NCBI RefSeq assembly: GCF_003018115.1 | Contig: NZ_CP027457.1 | Length of the DNA stretch: 64,000 nucleotides | Strand: one strand, 5' to 3' | DNA from: Escherichia coli | Lineage (GTDB): Bacteria; Pseudomonadota; Gammaproteobacteria; Enterobacterales; Enterobacteriaceae | Program-made: the position numbers and the translations under genes | Shown: piece after piece, positions 22,027-34,599 of the stretch | How positions within the stretch are numbered: position 1 is the first letter of the stretch | How the letters are laid out: each line of letters opens with the position of its first letter | The notes under the pieces: model-generated | What the model was told of the DNA's origin: nothing | The model's database searches: none | The model's input: the letters and a program-made list of their open reading frames with translations, nothing else

Positions 22027-25000
22027 ATGGCAGGGAAAGCGCATGGGAACGGCGATCGTCGGGGCGATAACACCATATGTGGATTGGGGGATCGTTTACG
22101 TCGTCTGACCGCCGGTATTTGCCTGATAACACAAACTATATTCCCTGTTATGGCCGCTGCCCCTACGCATATTAACCATGCGCATTCGGATACTGCCACG
22201 TCACTGATCCTGCCGAACGTTAAAACTATTCCATATACCCTGGGGGCATTGGAATCGCCATCAACGGTCGCGGCACGCTTTGGTATCACCGTTGATGAAT
22301 TACGTCGCCTGAATCAGTTTCGTACCTTTGCGCGGGGCTTTGACAATGTGCGTCAGGGCGATGAAATAGATGTGCCCCTCATTAACAGTAATAGCCTCGA
22401 AGCGCGCAACTTGAAAGCAATGCAGATGGAGCGCGACGGCAAAGATCCGCAAATGCAGGTCGCGGAAGTGGCGCAGCAAAGCGGAACACTTTTAGCTCGC
22501 GATATGGACAGCGAACAGGCGGCGAGTATGGCGCGTGGCTGGGTGGCTTCTTCTGCATCTGCGCAGGCAACGGACTGGCTCAGTCGTTGGGGAACTGCCC
22601 GGGTATCTCTTGGTGTGGATGAAGATTTCAGCCTTAAAAGCTCGTCATTTGAATTTCTCCATCCCTGGTACGAAACGCCGGATAACCTGGTCTTCAGCCA
22701 GCACACACTTCACCGTACGGATGATCGCACTCAAACCAACCACGGTATCGGCTGGCGTTACTTCACCCCGAGCTGGATGTCTGGCGTCAATATGTTTATC
22801 GATCATGACCTGACCCGCTATCACACCCGAACCGGGATGGGCGTTGAATACTGGCGCGATTACCTGAAACTGAGCGGCAACGGTTATCTGCGCCTCAGTA
22901 ACTGGCGTAGTGCACCGGAACTGGACAATGACTATGAAGCACGTCCGGCGAACGGTTGGGATCTTCGCGCTGAAGGCTGGTTACCGGCCTGGCCGCAGCT
23001 GGGCGGCAAGCTGGTCTATGAACAATATTATGGCGATGAAGTGGCGCTGTTTGGTAAAGACGAGCGACAAAACGATCCTCACGCGATTACCGCAGGTTTG
23101 AGTTACACCCCCGTTCCTCTGATCTCCTTTAGTGCCGAGCAACGGCAGGGCAAACAGGGAGAAAACGACACCCGAATTGGTATGGAGTTGACGTTGCAAC
23201 CTGGTCATTCACTGCAAAAACAGCTCGATCCAGCTGAAGTTGCAGCTCGGCGCAGCCTTGTGGGCAGTCGCTATGACCTGGTCGATCGTAATAACAATAT
23301 CGTCCTCGAATATCGCAAGAAAGAGCTGGTACGGCTGACGCTGACCGATCCGCTGAAAGGCAAGCCGGGTGAGGTTAAATCGCTGGTTTCTTCCTTACAG
23401 ACCAAATATGCGCTGAAAGGTTATGACATTGAAGCCGCCGCCCTGCAATCAGCGGGCGGAAAAGTAGCAGTTTCCGGCAAGGATATTCAGGTCACTATTC
23501 CTCCTTACCGATTCACGGCAATGCCTGAAACCGACAACACTTACCCGATAGCGGTTACAGCGGAAGATTCGAAAGGAAATTTCTCCCGGCGTGAAGAAAG
23601 TATGGTGGTCGTGGAAAAATCCACACTAAGCCTCGCCGATTCAACGCTTTCTGTCGATCTGCAAATCCTGCTTGCTGATGGAAAATCAACCTCAACGCTG
23701 ACCTATACCGCGCGAGATTCCAGCGGCAAGCCGATCCCCGGTATGACGTTAAAAACACAGGCAAAAGGTTTGCAGGATTTCGCCTTAAGCGAATGGAAAG
23801 ACAACGGTAACGGAACCTATACCCAAATAGTTACCGCCGGGAAGACGTCTGGCGCGTTATCGCTGATGCCGCAATTTAACGGCGACGATATCGCTAAGAC
23901 GCCAGCGCTGATTGCCATTGTAGCGAATACGGCATCCCGTGCTGACTCCACGATTGAGACAGACCAGGATAATTACGTCGCGGGTAAGCCGATAGTCGTT
24001 AAAGTGACCCTGAGAGATGATAACGGCAACGGGGTTACCGGAAGAAAAGAACTTCTCAAACAAACCGTTAAAGTAGACAACACGAAGGCTGATGCTGTTA
24101 GTGCCTGGACGGAAGAAAGTGAGGGAATTTACAAAGCAAGCTATACGGCCCATCTCATTGGCGACAAATTAACGGCCCAGCTAACGATGCCCGGCTGGCA
24201 AACCAAACATTCGGATGCGTTCAGTATTGCGGGTGATAAAGATACCGCCAAAATCGCTGCGATGCAGATCACCGCGAATAACGCAGTTGCCAGACGCGAT
24301 CACAATACCGTCGCTGTGACGGTCAGGGATGTGCATCAAAATTTACTGCAGGGACAAAATGTTACCTTCACGGTCGTGAATGGTGCGGCGGTTTTTGCCG
24401 ATCCAAACGGCGGTATTGTGACGACAGATAAAGACGGAATTGCCAGCGTTAACCTTGCCAGTGACCAGGCGGTAAACAGTCTTATCAAGGCCGAGATCAA
24501 TGGCAGTAGTCAGTCTGTGGAAGTGAGCTTTATCACTGGCGATATCTCGCAGCTGACCTCCACCATCAAGACGGACGATGTGTCATACACTGCGGGTGGC
24601 AAGATAAAAGTGTCCGTCACCCTTATGGATGAGCAGAAAAACCAGGTGAAAGGGATGGCTTCGCTGCTCGCGGGTAGCGGTGTGGTCGAGGTGAGCGGTA
24701 CAGATAAAAATGAAACGGGTAACTGGAGCGAAGAGTCTGACGGCGTTTATACCACCACCCGAACCGCGAAGATTGCTGGCGATCGCCATTACGCCACGCT
24801 GAAACTATCGACATGGAGTAGCGCGCAGCAATCCGATGCGTATGCCATCCGCGAAAGCGGAGCTGTGCTGGCTTATTCCTCCATCGTTACCGACAAAACG
24901 ACCTACACCGCGGGCGGTGCGATAAAAGTTACGGTGACACTCAAGGATAGCTATGAAAACCTGGTCGGGGGGCAACGAGACGCTATCAACCTGGCTATCC

Positions 25001-28000
25001 AGCTGCCAAATACAAAAGCGGAAAGCATCGCCTGGAATGAAGATCAAAAAGGAATTTATACCGCAACGTATACCGCCTTACTCCCTGGCACCGGTTTAAA
25101 AGCACAGCTACAGATGTCCGGCTGGGCGAACGCTCTGACTTCAAATGATTACAGTATTAGTGGCGATGCCGCCAGCGCACAAATTGTCGCGATGCAAGTG
25201 ACAACGGGTAACCCGGATGTGCTGGCAAATGGCAGCGATCGACATACGGTGAATGTCCGGGTGGAAGATCAGTTTGGCAATGTGCTGCCGGAGCAGACCG
25301 TCACCTTTACGGTGACGAAGGGGGCGGCTGTATTTGCCAATGCAGGGCAGAGCGCAGATATCAGGACGGATGCGCATGGTATGGCAGAGGTTGATCTGAG
25401 CAGTACCGTAGCGGATGCCAGCACTGTTGAGGCTAAGGTCAATCAAAGCAGCGATAGTAAAACGGTGAACTTTGTTGCTGATGTCAGCACGGCGCAGATC
25501 GCTGATCTGGTGGTCATTAAGGATGGCTCAGTGGCAGACGGTTCGACGGCGAACACGCTGCGGGTGAGGGTGACGGATGCGTTCGGTAATGCGCTGGGCG
25601 GGCAGACGGTCAGCGTGTTGGCGGACAACAGCGCAACGGTCGCTCCGACGGTTATCACCGAGCCGGACGGGACGGTGGAGATCTCTGTTACCAGCCAGAC
25701 GGCGGGAGTCAGTGCGGTCACCGCCAGTATCAACAACAGCAGCCTGAGCCGGAACGTGACGTTTGTTGCCGATGTCAGGACGGCGAAGATCGCTGATCTG
25801 GTGGTGATGCAGGACGGCTCAGTGGCAGATGGCACGACGGCGAACACGCTGCGGGCGAGGGTGACCGATGCGTTCGGCAATGCGCTTGCCGGGCAGACGG
25901 TCAGCGTGACTGCAGGCAACAGCGCAACGGTCGCTTCGACAGTGACCACAAAGCCGGACGGCACGGTGGAGATCAGTGTCACCAGCCAGACGGCGGGGAT
26001 CAGTACAGTCACTGCAACCATCAACAGCAGCAGTCAGAGCCGGAACGTGACGTTTGTCGCGGATGTCAGGACGGCGAAGATCGCTGATCTGGAGGTCATT
26101 AAGGATGGTTCAGAGGCGGACGGTGCGACGGCGAACACGCTGCGTGCGAGGGTAACCGATGCATTCGGAAATACGCTTGCCGGACAGACGGTCAGCGTGT
26201 TGGCAGGCAACGGCGCAACGGTCGCTCCGACGGTTATCACCGAGCCGGACGGGACGGTGGAGATCAGTGTCACCAGCCAGACTGCCGGAATCAGTGCAGT
26301 CACTGCAACCATCAACAGCAGTAGTCAGAGTCAGAACGTGACGTTTGTCGCGGATGTCAGGACGGCGAAGATCGCTGATCTGGAGGTCATTAAGGATGGT
26401 TCAGAGGCGGACGGTGCGACGGCGAACACGCTGCGTGCGAGGGTAACCGATGCGTTCGGCAATGCGCTTGCCGGGCAGACGGTCAGCGTGACTGCAGGCA
26501 ACAGCGCAACGGTCGCTTCGACGGTGACCACAAAGCCGGACGGGACGGTGGAGATCAGTGTCACCAGTCAGACGGCGGGGAGCAGTACAGTCACTGCCAG
26601 CATCAACAGCAGCAGCCTGAGCCGGGATGTGACGTTTATTGCGGATGTCAGGACGGCGCAGATCGCGGAGCTGGTGGTCATTAAGGATGGTTCAGAGGCG
26701 GACGGTGCGACGGCGAATACGCTGCGGGCGAGGGTGACCGATGCGTTCGGCAATGCGCTGGGCGGGCAGACGGTCAGCGTGTTGGCGGACAACGGCGCAA
26801 CGGTGTCTCCGACGGTTACCACAGAGTCGGACGGGACGGTGGAGATCAGTGTCACCAGCCAGACTGCCGGAATCAGTGCAGTCACTGCAACCATCAACAG
26901 CAGTAGTCAGAGTCAGAACGTGACGTTTGTCGCGGATGTCAGGACGGCGAAGATCGCTGATCTGGAGGTCATTAAGGATGGTTCAGAGGCGGACGGTGCG
27001 ACGGCGAACACGCTGCGTGCGAGGGTAACCGATGCGTTCGGCAATGCGCTTGCCGGGCAGACGGTCAGCGTGACTGCAGGCAACAGCGCAACGGTCGCTT
27101 CGACGGTGACCACAAAGCCGGACGGGACGGTGGAGATCAGTGTCACCAGTCAGACGGTGGGGAGCAGTACAGTCACTGCCAGCATCAACAGCAGCAGCCT
27201 GAGCCGGGATGTGACGTTTATTGCGGATGTCAGGACGGCGCAGATCGCGGAGCTGGTGGTCATTAAGGATGGTTCAGAGGCGGACGGTGCGACGGCGAAT
27301 ACGCTGCGGGCGAGGGTGACCGATGCGTTCGGCAATGCGCTGGGCGGGCAGACGGTCAGCGTGTTGGCGGACAACGGCGCAACGGTGTCTCCGACGGTTA
27401 CCACAGAGTCGGACGGGACGGTGGAGATCAGTCTCACCAGCCAGACGGCGGGCACCAGTGTGGTCACTGCCAGCATCAACAACAGCAGCCTGAGCCAGAG
27501 CGTGACATTTATTGCCGATGTCAGGACGGCGAAGATCGCGGATCTGGTGGTCATTAAGGACGGCTCAGTGGCAGATGGCGCGACGGCGAACACGCTGCGG
27601 GTGAGGGTCACCGATGCATTCGGCAATGCGCTTGCCGGGCAGACGGTCAGCGTGTTGTCGGACAACGGCGCAACGACTGCCCCGACGGTGAGCACAGAGC
27701 CGGACGGGACGGTGGAGATCAGTGTCACCAGCCAGACTGCCGGAATCAGTGCAGTCACTGCAACCATCAACAGCAGTAGTCAGAGTCAGAACGTGACGTT
27801 TGTCGCGGATGTCAGGACGGCGAAGATCGCTGATCTGGAGGTCATTAAGGATGGTTCAGAGGCGGACGGTGCGACGGCGAACACGCTGCGTGCGAGGGTA
27901 ACCGATGCGTTCGGCAATGCGCTTGCCGGGCAGACGGTCAGCGTGACTGCAGGCAACAGCGCAACGGTCGCTTCGACGGTGACCACAAAGCCGGACGGGA

Positions 28001-31000
28001 CGGTGGAGATCAGTGTCACCAGTCAGACGGCGGGGAGCAGTACAGTCACTGCCAGCATCAACAGCAGCAGCCTGAGCCGGGATGTGACGTTTATTGCGGA
28101 TGTCAGGACGGCGCAGATCGCGGAGCTGGTGGTCATTAAGGATGGTTCAGAGGCGGACGGTGCGACGGCGAATACGCTGCGGGCGAGGGTGACCGATGCA
28201 TTCGGAAATACGCTTGCCGGACAGACGGTCAGCGTGTTGGCAGGCAACGGCGCAACGGTCGCTCCGACGGTTATCACCGAGCCGGACGGGACGGTGGAGA
28301 TCAGTGTCACCAGCCAGACTGCCGGAATCAGTGCAGTCACTGCAACCATCAACAGCAGTAGTCAGAGTCAGAACGTGACGTTTGTCGCGGATGTCAGGAC
28401 GGCGAAGATCGCTGATCTGGAGGTCATTAAGGATGGTTCAGAGGCGGACGGTGCGACGGCGAACACGCTGCGTGCGAGGGTAACCGATGCGTTCGGCAAT
28501 GCGCTTGCCGGGCAGACGGTCAGCGTGACTGCAGGCAACAGCGCAACGGTCGCTTCGACGGTGACCACAAAGCCGGACGGGACGGTGGAGATCAGTGTCA
28601 CCAGTCAGACGGCGGGGAGCAGTACAGTCACTGCCAGCATCAACAGCAGCAGCCTGAGCCGGGATGTGACGTTTATTGCGGATGTCAGGACGGCGAAGAT
28701 CGCTGATCTGGAGGTCATTAAGGATGGTTCAGAGGCGGACGGTGCGACGGCGAACACGCTGCGTGCGAGGGTAACCGATGCGTTCGGCAATGCGCTTGCC
28801 GGGCAGACGGTCAGCGTGACTGCAGGCAACAGCGCAACGGTCGCTTCGACGGTGACCACAAAGCCGGACGGGACGGTGGAGATCAGTGTCACCAGTCAGA
28901 CGGCGGGGAGCAGTACAGTCACTGCCAGCATCAACAGCAGCAGCCTGAGCCGGGATGTGACGTTTATTGCGGATGTCAGGACGGCGCAGATCGCGGAGCT
29001 GGTGGTCATTAAGGATGGTTCAGAGGCGGACGGTGCGACGGCGAATACGCTGCGGGCGAGGGTGACCGATGCGTTCGGCAATGCGCTGGGCGGGCAGACG
29101 GTCAGCGTGTTGGCGGACAACGGCGCAACGGTCGCTTCGACGGTGACCACAAAGCCGGACGGGACGGTGGAGATCAGTGTCACCAGCCAGACGGCGGGCA
29201 CCAGTGTGGTCACTGTCAGCATCAACAACAGCAGCCAGAGCCGGAACGTGACATTTATCGCCGATGTCAGGACGGCGAAGATCGCTGAACTGGAGGTCAT
29301 TCGGGATAACGCGGTGGCAGACGGTTCGACGGCGAACACGCTGCGGGCGAGGGTAACCGATGCGTTCGGTAATGCGCTTGCCGGGCAGACGGTCAGCGTG
29401 TTGGCGGATAACGGCGCAACGGTCGCTCCGACGGTCATCACAGGGCCGGACGGTACGGTGGAAATCAGTGTCACCAGCCAGACGGCGGGCACCAGTGTGG
29501 TCACTGCCAGCATCAACAACAGCAGCCTGAGCCAGAGCGTGATGTTTGTCGCCGATATCAGGACGGCGCAGATCGCGGATCTGGTGGTCATTAAGGATGG
29601 TTCAGAGGCGGACGGTTCGACGGCGAACACGCTGCGGGCGAGGGTGACCGATGCGTTCGGCAATGCGCTTGCCGGGCAGACGGTCAGCGTGACGACGGAC
29701 AACGGCGCAACGACTGCCCCGACGGTGAGCACAGAGCCGGACGGCACGGTGGAAATCAGTGTCACCAGCCAGACGGCGGGGATCAGTACAGTCACTGCAA
29801 CCATCAACAACAGCACCCTGAGTCAGAACGTGACATTTATCGCCGATGTCAGAACGGCGCAGATCGCGAGTCTGGAGGTGACGCAGGATAACGCCGTGGC
29901 TGACGGCGCAATGGCGGATATGCTGCGGGCGAGGGTCACCGATGCGTTCGGTAATACGCTTGCCGGGCAGACGGTCAGCGTGATGGCGGACAACGGTGCA
30001 GCGGTCGCTTCGACGATGACCACAAAGCCGGACGGCACGGTGGAGATCAGTGTCACCAGCCAGACGGCAGGAATCAGTGTGGTCACCGCCAGCATCAACA
30101 GCAGCAGTCAGAGCCGGGATGTGACGTTTATCGCCGATATCAGGACGGCGCAGATCGCGGACCTGGTGGTCATTAAGGACGGCTCAGTGGCTGACGGCGC
30201 AATGGCGAATAAGCTGCGGGCGAGGGTCACCGATGCGTTCGGTAATGCACTTGCCGGGCAGACGGTCAGCGTGTTCGCAGGCAACGGTGCCACGACTGCT
30301 CCGACGGTCACCACGCAGCCGGACGGCACGGTGGAGATCTCTGTCACCAGCCAGACGGCAGGCACCAGTGCGGTCACTGCCAGCATTAACAGCAGCAGCC
30401 AGAGCCGGGATGTGACGTTTATCGCCGATGTCAGAACGGCGAAGATCGCTGATCTGGTGGTCATTAAGGACGGCTCAGTGGCAGACGGCGCAATGGCGAA
30501 CACGCTGCAGGTGAAGGTCACCGATGCGTTCGGCAATGCGCTTGGCGGACAGACGGTCAGCGTGACGGCAGGCAACAGCGCAACGGTCACTCCGACGGTC
30601 ACCACGCAGTCGGACGGTACGGTGGAGATCAGTGTCACCAGTCAGACGGCGGGGATCAGTACAGTCACTGCCAGCATCAACAACAGCAGCCTGAGCCGGA
30701 ACGTGACGTTTGTCGCGGATGTCAGGACGGCGCAGATCGCGGATCTGGTGGTCATTAAGGACGACTCAGTGGCCGACGGTGCAATGGCGAATATTCTGCG
30801 GGCGAGGGTGACCGATGCGTTCGGTAATACGCTTGCCGGGCAGACGGTCAGCGTGTTGTCGGACAACGGTGCAACGGTCGCTTCGACGATGACCACAAAG
30901 CCGGATGGCACGGTGGAGATCAGTGTCACCAGCCAGACGGCGGGGATCAGTACGGTCACTGCAACCATCAACAACAGCAGCCTGAGCCGGGACGTGACAT

Positions 31001-34000
31001 TTATCGCCGATGTCAGGACGGCGCAGATCGCGGACCTGGTGGTCATTAAGGACGGCGTAGTGGCAGACGGCGCAATGGCGAACATGCTGCGGGTGAGGGT
31101 CACCGATGCTAACGGTAATACGCTTGGCGGACAGACGGTCAGCGTATCGGCAGACAACAGCGCAATGGTCACTCCGACGGTGACCACGCAGCCGGATGGC
31201 ACGGTGGAGATCAGTGTCACCAGTCAGACGGCGGGGATCAGTACGGTCACTGCAACCATCAACAACAGCAGCCTGAGCCGGAACGTGACGTTTGTCGCGG
31301 ATGTCAGGACGGCGCAGATCGTTGATCTGGTGGTCATTAAGGACGACTCAGTGGCAGACGGTGCAATGGCGAATATGCTGCGGGCGAGGGTCACCGATGC
31401 GTTCGGTAATACGCTTGCCGGGCAGACGGTCAGCGTGACGGCAGGCAACGGCGCAACGGTCACTCCGACGGTCACCACGCAGCCGGACGGCACGGTGGAT
31501 ATCAGTGTCACCAGCCAGACGGCGGGGATCAGTACAGTCACTGCAACCATCAACAACAGCACCCTGAGTCAGAACGTGACATTTATCGCCGATGTCAGAA
31601 CGGCGCAGATCGCGAGTCTGGAGGTGACGCAGGATAACGCCGTGGCTGACGGCGCAATGGCGGATATGCTGCGGGCGAGGGTCACCGATGCGTTCGGTAA
31701 TGCGCTTGCCGGGCAGACGGTCAGCGTGATGGCGGACAACGGTGCAGCGGTCGCTTCGACGATGACCACAAAGCCGGACGGCACGGTGGAGATCAGTGTC
31801 ACCAGTCAGACGGCAGGAATCAGTGTGGTCACCGCCAGCATCAACAGCAGCAGTCAGAGCCGGGATGTGACGTTTATCGCCGATATCAGGACGGCGCAGA
31901 TCGCGGACCTGGTGGTCATTAAGGACGGCTCAGTGGCTGACGGCGCAATGGCGAACATGCTGCAGGTAAAGGTTACCGATGCTAACGGCAATGTGCTTGC
32001 CGGGCAGACGGTCAGCATGATGGCAGGCAACGGTGCAACGGTTGCCCCGACGGTGATTACAGAGCCGGACGGTACGGTGGAGATCCCTGTCACCAGCCAG
32101 ACGGCGGGAGCCAGTGCGGTCACCGCCAGTATCAACAGCAGCAACGCGAGCCGGAACGTGACGTTTATCGCCGATGTCAGAACGGCGAAGATCGCTGATC
32201 TGGTGGTCATTAAGGACGGCTCAGTGGCAGACGGCGCAATGGCGAACACGCTGCAGGTGAGGGTCACCGATGCGTTCGGCAATGCGCTTGGCGGACAGAC
32301 GGTCAGCGTGACGGCAGGCAACAGCGCAACGGTCACTCCGACGGTCACCACGCAGTCGGACGGTACGGTGGAGATCAGTGTCACCAGTCAGACGGCGGGA
32401 GTTAGCGCAGTCACAGCAACCATCAACAATCATAGCCTGAGCCAGAACGTCACCTTTGTACCGGGTGACGCATCGCAGCTCACTTCAACCGTTGAAACAA
32501 ATAAGTCTAACTACACGGTTGGAGAGACCATCACCATCACGGTAACGCTCCGGGATGCGTTCGATAATCTGGTAACCGGTGCAGCTTCACAGTTAGCCGC
32601 TAATAGTGTGCTGACGGTGGATGGCACCGACCCGTCAGAAACGGGAAGCTGGGTTGAATCAGGTGGCGTGTATACCACAACCCGAATGGCGACGATTGCC
32701 GGTAACGATCAGCACGCCAACCTGCAATTGCAGTCGTGGAGTGTTGGCGTAACGTCAGATCGCTATGACATACAGTCCGGTTCTCCGGCGCAAGCCACAT
32801 CAACTATCGCCACGGATAAAAACGCATACACCGCTGGCGAGACTATAACCGTCGCCGTGACGCTGAAAGATGCGCACGGTAACCTGGTTGAAGGGGGCGA
32901 GTCCTTACTGTCTGGTGATAACGTAACAGTGGAAGGAGCCGTACGTTCAGGAGAGTGGTCTGAAACTGCCGGTGTTTATACTGCTACATGGTCGGCGCAA
33001 ATGGCGGGAGACTCTCACCACGCGACGCTGACGTTGCCCGAGTGGGGCAGCAGTAAACAATCAGAGAGTTATTCCATCCACAGTGGTGCTCCGGTGCAGG
33101 CAAATTCTGCTATCAGGACAGATAAATCGGCATATATCGCCGGGGAGCCATTAACTGTCACAATAACGTTGCGGGATGAGTTTGGTAACCCTGCTTTAGG
33201 GCTGACATCAGAAGTCATCGAGTCTTATATCGATAATTTCGCGGTAGGTGGCGCAACTTCCGATTCTATGCAGTGGGTCGAGCAGAATAATGGTGAATAT
33301 ACCATTGTCTGGACAGCATGGGTTGCCGAGGAAAATCTGGTTGCCAGTCTGAAATTGAAAACATGGGCAACGGAGATTAAGTCCTCGTTATACGGAATAC
33401 AACCAGGTGCGGCGGAAAAAACTCAATCCACGATTGTCGCGGACAAAACGATATATATTGCTGGGGATAGCATAACGGTGACCGTTGTTCTTAAAGATGC
33501 CCAGGATAACTTTATTACTGATGGCGTTGTTCAGCTTAATGAGGAAAACGTACAAGTCAGGAATGCGGATCCTATCCAGGGCAATAATTGGGTTTACAAT
33601 GGCAATGGTATATATCAAAGACAGTATATGGCGCATTTTGCGGAAGCGAACTTGAATGCGCAATTGAAGATGACTGGTTGGAGCGATGCCAATTATTCAA
33701 ATAGCTACATGATTAAACCAGGTGAAGTAAGTATGCTTCGTTCACAGCTTCGTATACGCGAAGTTTTAGTGGTAGCTGGGGCGGATATACCTGTCAGTGT
33801 TTTATTAGCTGATGAATTTGGTAATCCTGTGAATGACGGTCTGGATTTGCTGACAGATGATGCAGTGTACTTACAAAATGTGGAAAAGAAACATTGGTCC
33901 AGTTGGACATTTGTAGGTGATGGCAGATATGAGCGTACCTATATGGCTTACAAAGAAGGAGAAAACTTAAACTCTTATCTACATATTAATGGTTGGTATG

Positions 34001-34599: not shown

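Follow-up and report, generated by a model that had tools for sequence, protein, structure and literature searches.

The 24-unit iatC (air/eaeX) allele of an Escherichia coli eip island and the variation of its Ig-like repeat number among complete genomes

IatC of Escherichia coli SMS-3-5 (EcSMS35_4024; Goh et al. 2019, mSphere, PMC6714894) has been described as a protein of 2934 aa in which a LysM domain and a barrel are followed by Big_1 repeats and capped by a C-type lectin. Orthologues were reported to occupy conserved positions, and the recombinant SMS-3-5 protein was surface-exposed by immunofluorescence and promoted biofilm formation, yet it showed neither autoaggregation nor binding to extracellular matrix proteins (PMC6714894). 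In part, therefore, the term adhesin reflects membership of the family. Air/EaeX of EAEC 042 and ST69 (Fox et al. 2020, PMC7058095), whose first description as Air is attributed to Sheikh et al. 2006, is encoded beside eilA in the published eip (selC-B) island (PMC7058095). EilA has been reported to activate both eaeX and the eip genes, and eaeX and eilA mutants of EAEC 042 are reduced in adherence and biofilm formation (PMC7058095, PMC4210603, PMC11068852). EaeX proteins of different strains carry different numbers of Ig-like (Big) repeats (PMC7058095), whereas another paper reported that it saw no sign of variability in the repeat number of IatC (PMC6714894). Almost identical Ig domains have also been described in the Yersinia ruckeri invasin-like molecule (PMC6714894).

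The window analyzed here, that is, the whole stretch of 64,000 nucleotides of E. coli DNA, contains an intact iatC (= air/eaeX) coding sequence at 22027–34599 on the plus strand. The ORF list and its translation gave one reading frame with an ATG start, 4190 codons, and zero internal stops, for a product of roughly 430 kDa, in agreement with the single 12.6-kb ORF recognized in an earlier note on this DNA. The product exactly matched RefSeq WP_159026622.1, 'inverse autotransporter adhesin IatC', and scored 3077.7 bits (cut-off, 2400) against NCBIfam NF040978 (Ve_IatC_Nterm, a curated equivalog-domain model) over model positions 1–1065 of 1065. The PGAP annotation of an orthologue begins at the same ATG, and an AGGGA ribosome-binding site was found 8 nt upstream of this codon; an in-frame TTG at 22084, which matches the annotated YeeJ start in the alignment, is an alternative start. 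A sigma-70-like promoter was not found in the 200 bp upstream of iatC on the plus strand. Of 5426 complete E. coli genomes, 755 carried the gene at this locus, and the median copy number was one. The window gene is thus chromosomal E. coli iatC, the same locus as air/eaeX, and its product is the inverse-autotransporter (type Ve secretion) adhesin that belongs to the eip/selC-B island; this explanation as a whole, together with the display, the copy-number mechanism, and the function proposed below, is highly probable (approximately 0.93).

The window gene shares its RefSeq gene name with SMS-3-5 iatC, and its product resembles the published IatC layout. SMS-3-5 IatC, compared by description, has 2934 aa versus 4190 aa and 24 units in the window protein; by arithmetic, the former length would accommodate 11 units and a tail of 716 aa, whereas the window carries the other tip allele with a 712-aa tail. 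As in EAEC 042 and ST69, the locus lies beside eilA in the eip/selC-B island, and some orthologues were labelled 'air: EaeX/Air' by PGAP. The 'air' protein of EC1515 was 99.1% identical to the window protein over its first 1151 aa, and the identity rose to 99.5% for the tip; it has 20 units instead of 24, and the two differ only in the number and order of units and in point differences. Because IatC/Air/EaeX has already been described and its repeat number is known to differ among strains, the window gene is a large but unremarkable allele of a gene that is already known.

The closest K-12 paralogue, YeeJ (b1978), was 51% identical over 1148 N-terminal residues, with much higher identity in the LysM-barrel region. 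Its overall layout is that of IatC, and its lectin-like tip is homologous (30% identical). In contrast, the yeeJ locus is different and adjoins asnT, its Big_1 domains are diverged and do not form a homogenized tandem array, and its GC3 is 0.45–0.53 compared with 0.76 in the iatC array. Invasin of Yersinia and intimin of EPEC/EHEC share with the window protein a homologous barrel, a D4-D5 tip with aligned Cys (1CWV), and the type Ve topology; however, they have 4–5 extracellular domains compared with approximately 38. Intimin proper was examined as an identity and rejected: the NCBIfam intimin_all model scored 422.3 bits, under its cut-off of 1400, and aligned with the barrel region only. The window protein is therefore not intimin. 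A gene for the partner Tir was absent from the window island. The N-terminal model of the YrIlm family of Y. ruckeri, which differs from window iatC in genus and locus, gave E = 7.7e-124 and 413.9 bits, below the cut-off of 750.

Domain searches confirmed the intimin/invasin-like layout proposed in the earlier note, with matches to IAT_beta, Big_1, Invasin_D3, the invasin D4-D5 region, and the IatC model. The barrel, the Ig repeats, and the tip all stood, while the two N-terminal elements were less firm. The putative long Sec signal peptide (aa 1–45; 22027–22161, plus strand) was assigned by eye from a basic n-region, the hydrophobic TAGICLITQTIFPVMAAA, and an Ala-rich cleavage motif, in which Ala-Ala-Ala follows the hydrophobic core, and it aligns with the YeeJ N-terminus. 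The LysM-like, putatively periplasmic segment (aa approximately 63–116; 22213–22374, plus strand) gave a partial and sub-threshold Pfam LysM match (E = 0.14, aa 77–98) and showed high similarity to the corresponding part of YeeJ; in the literature, IatC/EaeX is assigned a LysM domain (PMC6714894, PMC7058095). The inverse-autotransporter beta-barrel translocation domain (22471–23295, plus strand) matched Pfam IAT_beta (PF11924) over the whole model length at aa 149–423 (E = 2.7e-108) and the solved barrels of invasin (4E1T, E = 5.7e-80) and intimin (4E1S, E = 4.2e-68).

The barrel is N-terminal to the passenger, and every Ig-like domain identified with Pfam lies C-terminal to it. Approximately seven non-repeated Ig-like domains (Big_1/Invasin_D3) form the base of the passenger at 23344–25479 on the plus strand; Pfam matches were located at aa 537–633, 639–727, 744–837, 843–918, 950–1022, and 1056–1150, and this base is similar to YeeJ. 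Big_1 and Invasin_D3 domains continue all along the passenger, the best match (E = 1.5e-19) being Big_1 on the last unit of the array. Distal to the array, approximately five non-repeated Ig-like domains (32464–34017, plus strand) were assigned with Invasin_D3/Big_1 and with PDB 4E9L (attaching and effacing protein, pathogenesis factor; E = 3.1e-09). By analogy with the intimin/invasin family, the long signal peptide would route the protein through Sec, the LysM-like segment would remain periplasmic and bind peptidoglycan, a 12-stranded beta-barrel would insert into the outer membrane, and the C-terminal passenger would thread outward through it. Outside the cell, a rod of approximately 37 Ig-like domains (approximately 7 basal, 24 repeated, 5 distal, and 1 D4-like) would be capped by a C-type-lectin-like domain, held by a disulfide bond, through which the target would be contacted. 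The 24-unit array would be the variable-length middle of the rod; at approximately 3.6 nm per Ig domain, taken from the invasin rod, it would add approximately 85 nm of reach.

The array consists of 24 tandem 291-bp (97-codon) Big_1 units at 25480–32463 on the plus strand, delimited using Tandem Repeats Finder, an identity matrix, and a unit HMM. Tandem Repeats Finder reported one array at 25480–32457 (period 291, 24.0 copies, 86% matches, 0% indels, score 9426), and the unit HMM detected 24 full units at aa 1152–3478. This is the same array of 24 97-codon units that had been placed at 25474–32460, in a phase shifted 6 bp earlier. All units are exactly 291 bp long and in codon register, with a mean identity of approximately 86%. 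Since the adjoining 291-bp stretches are only 27–38% identical to the units, the edges of the array are sharp.

The description of the units as near-identical holds for a subset: units 4, 9, 11, and 12 were mutually 100% identical, unit 6 was nearly identical to them (rounding to 100%), identity was 99% for units 16 and 22 and 98% for units 3 and 10, whereas most other pairs in the matrix were 81–93% identical. Identity over more than 230 bp, which had also been claimed, was confirmed by 10 maximal exact in-register repeats, all within units 3–13, the longest of which were 504, 503, 455, and 417 bp. Units 3–13 are the recently amplified core.

On the opposite strand of the array, ORFs reach 306 aa; they were dismissed as genes, being a by-product of the GC-rich periodic coding sequence. 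A pattern search located eight Chi sites (GCTGGTGG) in the window, compared with 2.2 expected for the entire window, and four of these, all exact, lie in the array (26670–29005, plus strand), starting at 26670, 27252, 28125, and 28998 in units 5, 7, 10, and 13. The array Chi sites derive from the consecutive codons GAG-CTG-GTG-GTC, which encode E-L-V-V, and every one of the 13 sampled alleles has 1–5 Chi sites in its array. A driving role of Chi sites in the recent amplification was considered and rejected, since their number does not follow the number of identical units; the NMBU_W05E18 allele, for example, has 10 identical unit pairs and one Chi site.

Unit counts were taken with the unit HMM from loci retrieved from 13 complete genomes, a comparison across related strains that had been suggested in the earlier note. 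In all 13, the ORF was intact and contained 4–27 units, always in frame, with the array starting at aa 1152. These results support the proposed expansion and contraction of the array. Within this range, 24 units are a large but not an extreme number, and alleles with 25 and 27 units rule out the window allele as the largest. Strain GF3-3 has 14 units. The nearest lineage, ETEC O169:H41, has 22 units, and its 5' part is 99.6% identical to that of the window; its array is collinear with that of the window at both ends, and the difference is confined to window units 12–15. The report of no variability for IatC (PMC6714894) is contradicted by PMC7058095 and by the 4–27 units counted here. Change in copy number is the outcome seen in the strain comparison; as to its mechanism, we infer that copy number changes through RecA-type unequal recombination together with gene conversion between units, for which the exact repeats of 300–500 bp in the window allele would be ample substrate.

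The tip, at 34018–34596 on the plus strand, comprises an invasin D4-like Ig domain and a D5 C-type-lectin-like domain with Cys4113 and Cys4186, and varies between alleles. Using phmmer, aa 3998–4164 aligned with residues 296–460 of the invasin D4-D5 chain (1CWV, E = 1.3e-17), with Cys4113 on an invasin Cys, and Pfam Invasin_D4 matched in the tip with E = 1.6e-12. An AlphaFold2 model of the last 215 aa from a 6-sequence alignment had a pLDDT of 34.9 and was unusable; the lectin-like fold of the tip is predicted from its homology to invasin. Over the last 200 residues, the tip occurs as two allele classes that are approximately 57% identical and most divergent in the lectin-like domain, and both cysteines are invariant in the two classes. 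Within the gene, GC3 is highest in the array (0.76), intermediate in the N-terminal part (0.55), and lowest in the tip (0.35). In all 13 sampled alleles, the array had a GC3 of 0.74–0.77, compared with 0.35–0.55 in the rest of the gene. The contrast between GC-rich repeats and an AT-rich surrounding island, pointed out earlier, was also evident in total GC, with 0.60–0.63 in the array and 0.36–0.40 in the 3' end of iatC and the downstream island (34–42 kb). Two forms of the lectin-like tip and a codon composition that falls into three parts point to a mosaic gene, whose tip alleles may bind different receptors.

The order nepI (yicM)–iatC/air–eilA–eip genes was found in the window and in 14 of 14 retrieved loci. 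The eip/selC-B island is inserted between nepI and yicS, approximately 11 kb from the selC tRNA gene (tRNA-Sec, 46094–46188). Downstream of iatC and convergent with it lies an intact eilA gene (34649–36346, minus strand), which encodes a HilA-family regulator (NCBIfam NF009037, 953.8 bits; cut-off, 589) and is annotated as eilA in the orthologous loci. A GC-rich hairpin with a 10-bp stem between the two genes (34613–34636, plus strand), detected as a consensus match in a terminator-like scan, is likely to be a shared terminator. The remainder of the AT-rich island (GC 0.36–0.40) is occupied by eipD, eipC, eipB, and eicA (36549–41611, minus strand), which NCBIfam and the PGAP annotation of orthologous loci identify as homologues of the translocators SipD, SipC, and SipB and of the chaperone SicA; among the NCBIfam matches, those to SipD/IpaD and to a needle tip complex protein of type III secretion (PRK15374) scored below cut-off, and that to the SycD/LcrH chaperone family scored above it. 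PADLOC and NCBIfam searches gave no match for two hypothetical genes in an AT-rich islet at 7.7–10.7 kb. From the published orthologues, expression of window iatC would be expected to depend on the adjacent HilA-like EilA, and adherence and biofilm formation would be its expected function.

Although the gene is real, the count of 24 units or their order might be an assembly artefact in which identical units were collapsed, expanded, or mis-ordered, and the exact repeats of 417–504 bp are longer than short reads. The array does break assemblies, because the 90%-identity cluster of the protein is dominated by draft-assembly fragments of 880–1920 aa, often partial, and the collapse risk raised in the earlier note was thereby borne out; in addition, the best match among the complete RefSeq genomes searched, a set outside which the source record falls, reached 99.6%. 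However, WP_159026622.1 is encoded on a 5.0-Mb contig, i.e., a closed chromosome, and none of the 24 in-frame 291-bp units contains an indel. Furthermore, three independently assembled O169:H41 genomes have one common 22-unit protein, in which 15 of the 24 window units occur exactly and the order of units agrees with the window at both array ends, and the existence of 25- and 27-unit alleles makes 24 not implausible. An artefactual count or order is therefore quite unlikely.

A genuine array could nevertheless be a contingency locus mainly for antigenic variation or immune evasion, instead of a structural spacer of drifting or tuned length. Such a role would accord with 179 distinct sequences among the 231 units of 13 alleles, with approximately half of the residue positions varying between units, and with the surface exposure of the protein in published work (PMC6714894). 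On the other hand, the units are under purifying selection (dN/dS approximately 0.31), repeat number was reported to be conserved within ST69 (PMC7058095), and the array lacks any mechanism for slippage at short tracts or for on/off switching; the identical protein in the three O169:H41 genomes argues against rapid switching. Antigenic variation, which the earlier note had also raised, is thus not supported as the driver and appears very unlikely. It might also be supposed that iatC is the intact yet silent cargo of a decaying island, and that it yields no product in nature: ETT2, a related type III secretion cluster, has been described as widely degraded (PMC7058095, PMC11068852), some genomes have split or disrupted copies of the gene (survey rows H32, H62, and H71) or eip genes interrupted by IS1, and the 200 bp upstream yielded no sigma-70-like promoter on the plus strand. 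This supposition is improbable, since a stop-free 12.6-kb ORF and 13 intact alleles among 13 sampled would be hard to keep without selection, the dN/dS was 0.31, eilA and all eip genes are intact in the window, and eaeX and eilA mutants of EAEC 042 show adherence and biofilm phenotypes in published work (PMC7058095, PMC11068852).

The gene, its island, its regulator, the role in biofilm formation and adherence, and the variation in repeat number are all already published and annotated, so that the significance of this large iatC allele is small beyond bookkeeping. The in-frame alleles of 4–27 units in complete genomes settle the disagreement between two papers on the repeat variability of IatC. 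Draft assemblies routinely fragment iatC, and short-read surveys of its presence or intactness are consequently unreliable. In a more speculative reading, which we consider unlikely, the locus would be a module of reach times receptor, in which recombining tips would set receptor specificity and the array would set the length of the stalk, and the uniformly high GC3 of the array might be the footprint of GC-biased gene conversion in concerted evolution, not of foreign origin. On this reading, the two recombining tip alleles, approximately 57% identical, would confer different receptor specificities, and the array of 4–27 units would give each lineage a stalk long enough for its own depth of capsule or O-antigen.

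An uninterrupted ORF of 4190 codons with an ATG start was found at 22027–34599 (+) in the window, as a single plus-strand frame, in agreement with the earlier note; an AGGGA ribosome-binding site lies ahead of this start codon. The RefSeq protein WP_159026622.1, which is named IatC and originates from a 5.0-Mb contig, is the exact 4190-aa sequence. The protein scored 3077.7 bits against a cut-off of 2400 with the curated NCBIfam model NF040978, and it failed all four of the NCBIfam intimin, SinH, YchO, and YrIlm models. The 5' 3.4 kb of iatC had 755 matching records, spread over 754 of the 5426 complete E. coli genomes, and the median was one copy per genome; all of the matches but one were chromosomal, and the remaining one is in a plasmid-labelled record. 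PGAP names the match "iatC: inverse autotransporter adhesin IatC", and in some strains "air: inverse autotransporter adhesin EaeX/Air". The gene, its family, island, regulator, phenotype, and repeat-number variation have all been published and annotated already, and the finding holds nothing new in kind.

The order of domains was examined in view of the claim of an intimin/invasin-like layout. A putative long signal peptide (aa 1–45) was proposed from visual inspection and an alignment with YeeJ, the closest K-12 paralogue, which is 51% identical to IatC over 1148 aa and 30% identical in the tip. It is followed by a LysM-like segment (aa ca. 63–116), which gave a partial Pfam match (E = 0.14), is conserved with YeeJ, and has been called LysM in published analyses (PMC6714894, PMC7058095). 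The inverse-autotransporter beta-barrel at aa 149–423 was detected with PF11924 (E = 2.7e-108) and matched the solved barrels of invasin (4E1T, E = 5.7e-80) and intimin (4E1S, E = 4.2e-68). According to domain matches, approximately seven diverged Ig-like domains extend from the barrel to aa 1151, and approximately five others lie distal to the array of 24 Big_1 units, which was located at aa 1152–3478 by a domain search and a unit HMM. The C-terminal tip (34018–34596, +) is homologous to invasin D4-D5 (1CWV, E = 1.3e-17; Pfam Invasin_D4, E = 1.6e-12). The claimed layout therefore stood for the barrel, the Big_1 domains, and the tip, and is provisional for the LysM segment and the signal peptide. 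The passenger contains just two cysteines, 4113 and 4186, both in the tip, and Cys4113 aligns with an invasin cysteine. An AlphaFold model of the tip had a pLDDT of 35 and was unusable. A hairpin with a 10-bp stem is located at 34613–34636, between iatC and the convergent eilA.

The last 200 aa of IatC fall into two classes, with at least 99% identity within a class and ca. 57% between classes. The tails are 712 aa in one class and 716/717 aa in the other, in a comparison of the window with the orthologous loci L005, L007, L009, L012, and L014. The two classes differ mostly in the lectin-like D5 domain, and the N-termini are 98–99% identical. The allele of the window belongs to the minority class, which is full-length in 85 genomes and includes a sub-class at ca. 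92% nucleotide identity. The PGAP naming as iatC or air does not follow the tip type.

Tandem Repeats Finder reported a sole array at 25480–32457, with a period of 291, 24.0 copies, 86% matches, and 0 indels. When cut from 25480, the 24 units, a number that holds for the sequence as assembled, are 97 codons each and all in codon register. The edges of the array are sharp, because the flanking 291-bp stretches showed only 27–38% identity to the units. Only some of the units fit the description near-identical: units 4, 9, 11, and 12 are mutually identical and unit 6 almost so, and units 16 and 22 and units 3 and 10 are 99% and 98% identical, respectively, whereas most of the remaining pairs share 81–93% identity. 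The claimed identity over more than 230 bp was borne out by 10 maximal exact in-register repeats of such length, all inside units 3–13, and the longest are 504, 503, 455, and 417 bp. Antisense ORFs at 25141–32384 (−), the longest of 306 aa, recur at the array period; they were therefore taken as by-products of GC-rich repeated coding sequence and not as genes.

Fourteen orthologous loci from complete genomes were compared, and their units were counted with an HMM made from those of the window, since a whole-gene BLAST survey is unable to size long arrays. iatC was intact in all 14 loci, with the array starting at aa 1152 in each. The other alleles carry 4, 10, 14, 15, 16, 17, 18, 19, 20, 22, 25, or 27 units in frame, 22 being the number in three O169:H41 ETEC genomes with one common protein. 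The predicted expansion and contraction of the array is thus evident, and the 24 units of the window are a large but not extreme number. One paper found no evidence for variability of the IatC repeat number (PMC6714894), and variation of this kind was described for EaeX in later work (PMC7058095); the complete-genome counts clearly agree with the latter. In the closest lineage (99.6% identity in the 5' part of iatC), the array is collinear with that of the window as far as unit 11 and over units 16–24, and two mosaic units stand in place of units 12–15. Judged from the unit sequences, this two-for-four difference is a signature that would be left by unequal crossing-over and gene conversion within the array. 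In most alleles, no two units are identical, and the units average ca. 85% identity. Among the sampled alleles, identical units occur only in those of the window, the closest lineage, NMBU_W05E18, and EC1515 (a single pair), which points to recent local amplification in these alleles. On the other hand, the suggested antigenic variation was not favored, because the dN/dS of the units (ca. 0.31) indicates purifying selection and argues for a structural role over diversifying antigenic selection. The 90%-identity cluster of the protein has 174 members, and 14 of the 15 listed are proteins of 880–1920 aa, often partial, from draft contigs; short-read assemblies therefore break at the array, as anticipated.

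The GC content was 0.60–0.63 in the array and 0.36–0.40 in the 3' end of iatC and the genes downstream, consistent with the reported contrast between GC-rich repeats and an AT-rich flank. Along iatC, GC3 rose from 0.55 in the N-terminal part to 0.76 within the array, then fell to 0.50 across the distal Ig domains and to 0.35 at the tip; within the array it was constant at 0.74–0.77 in 13 of 13 alleles, whereas the diverged Big_1 region of YeeJ has a GC3 of ca. 0.5. Either a foreign founder unit or GC-biased gene conversion is possible as the source of the high array GC3. Exact Chi sites (GCTGGTGG) were found in the array at 26670, 27252, 28125, and 28998 (+), in units 5, 7, 10, and 13, respectively, and come from codons for the residues E-L-V-V. 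The whole window has eight, all on the plus strand, compared with an expectation of 2.2 from shuffling. The array of each sampled allele holds 1–5 Chi sites, and no clear link between their number and recent amplification was seen across these alleles.

The gene order in the window is ilvBN-uhpABCT-adeD-adeQ-yicN-toxin-antitoxin pair-nepI-iatC-eilA, followed by eipD-eipC-eipB-eicA-yicS-nlpA-yicL-setC-tRNA-Sec. The iatC-eicA block is the eip (selC-B) island known from the literature, where it is described as an insertion of six genes between yicM (nepI) and nlpA (PMC7058095, PMC11068852), and eilA and the eip genes are all intact. The RelE/ParE-family toxin and helix-turn-helix antitoxin genes (19747–20413, −) lie immediately upstream of the island, with yicN and nepI on either side, and were found in every iatC-positive locus retrieved. 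The selC tRNA-Sec gene (46094–46188, −) is ca. 11 kb from iatC. selC is a classic island integration site, and no insertion at selC itself was visible in the window. An AT-rich islet at 7.7–10.7 kb (GC 0.34–0.36) between ilvN and uhpA contains two hypothetical genes, neither of which had a PADLOC or NCBIfam match. The first (7706–9001, +) is intact at 431 aa in strain F9792 and is probably a pseudogene in the window because of an in-frame stop at codon 113. The istR small RNA (4997–5126, +) adjoins the tisB toxin locus. In some iatC-positive genomes (loci L008, L009, and L010, positions 1–2840), the uhp operon upstream of adeD has given way to a PTS/LacI module together with a fragment of yicS, indicating that the region also varies on its left flank.

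By analogy with the intimin/invasin family, IatC would be exported through Sec, the LysM segment would contact peptidoglycan, the barrel would insert, and the passenger would be exported, a predicted rod of ca. 37 Ig-like domains ending in a lectin-like tip. The array would give the stalk a variable length, with each domain adding ca. 3.6 nm if it resembles those of the invasin rod (1CWV structure). Published work shows IatC to be surface-exposed and to promote biofilm formation (PMC6714894). EilA is described as the activator of eaeX and of the eip genes, and eaeX and eilA mutants of EAEC 042 show less adherence and less biofilm (PMC7058095, PMC4210603, PMC11068852).
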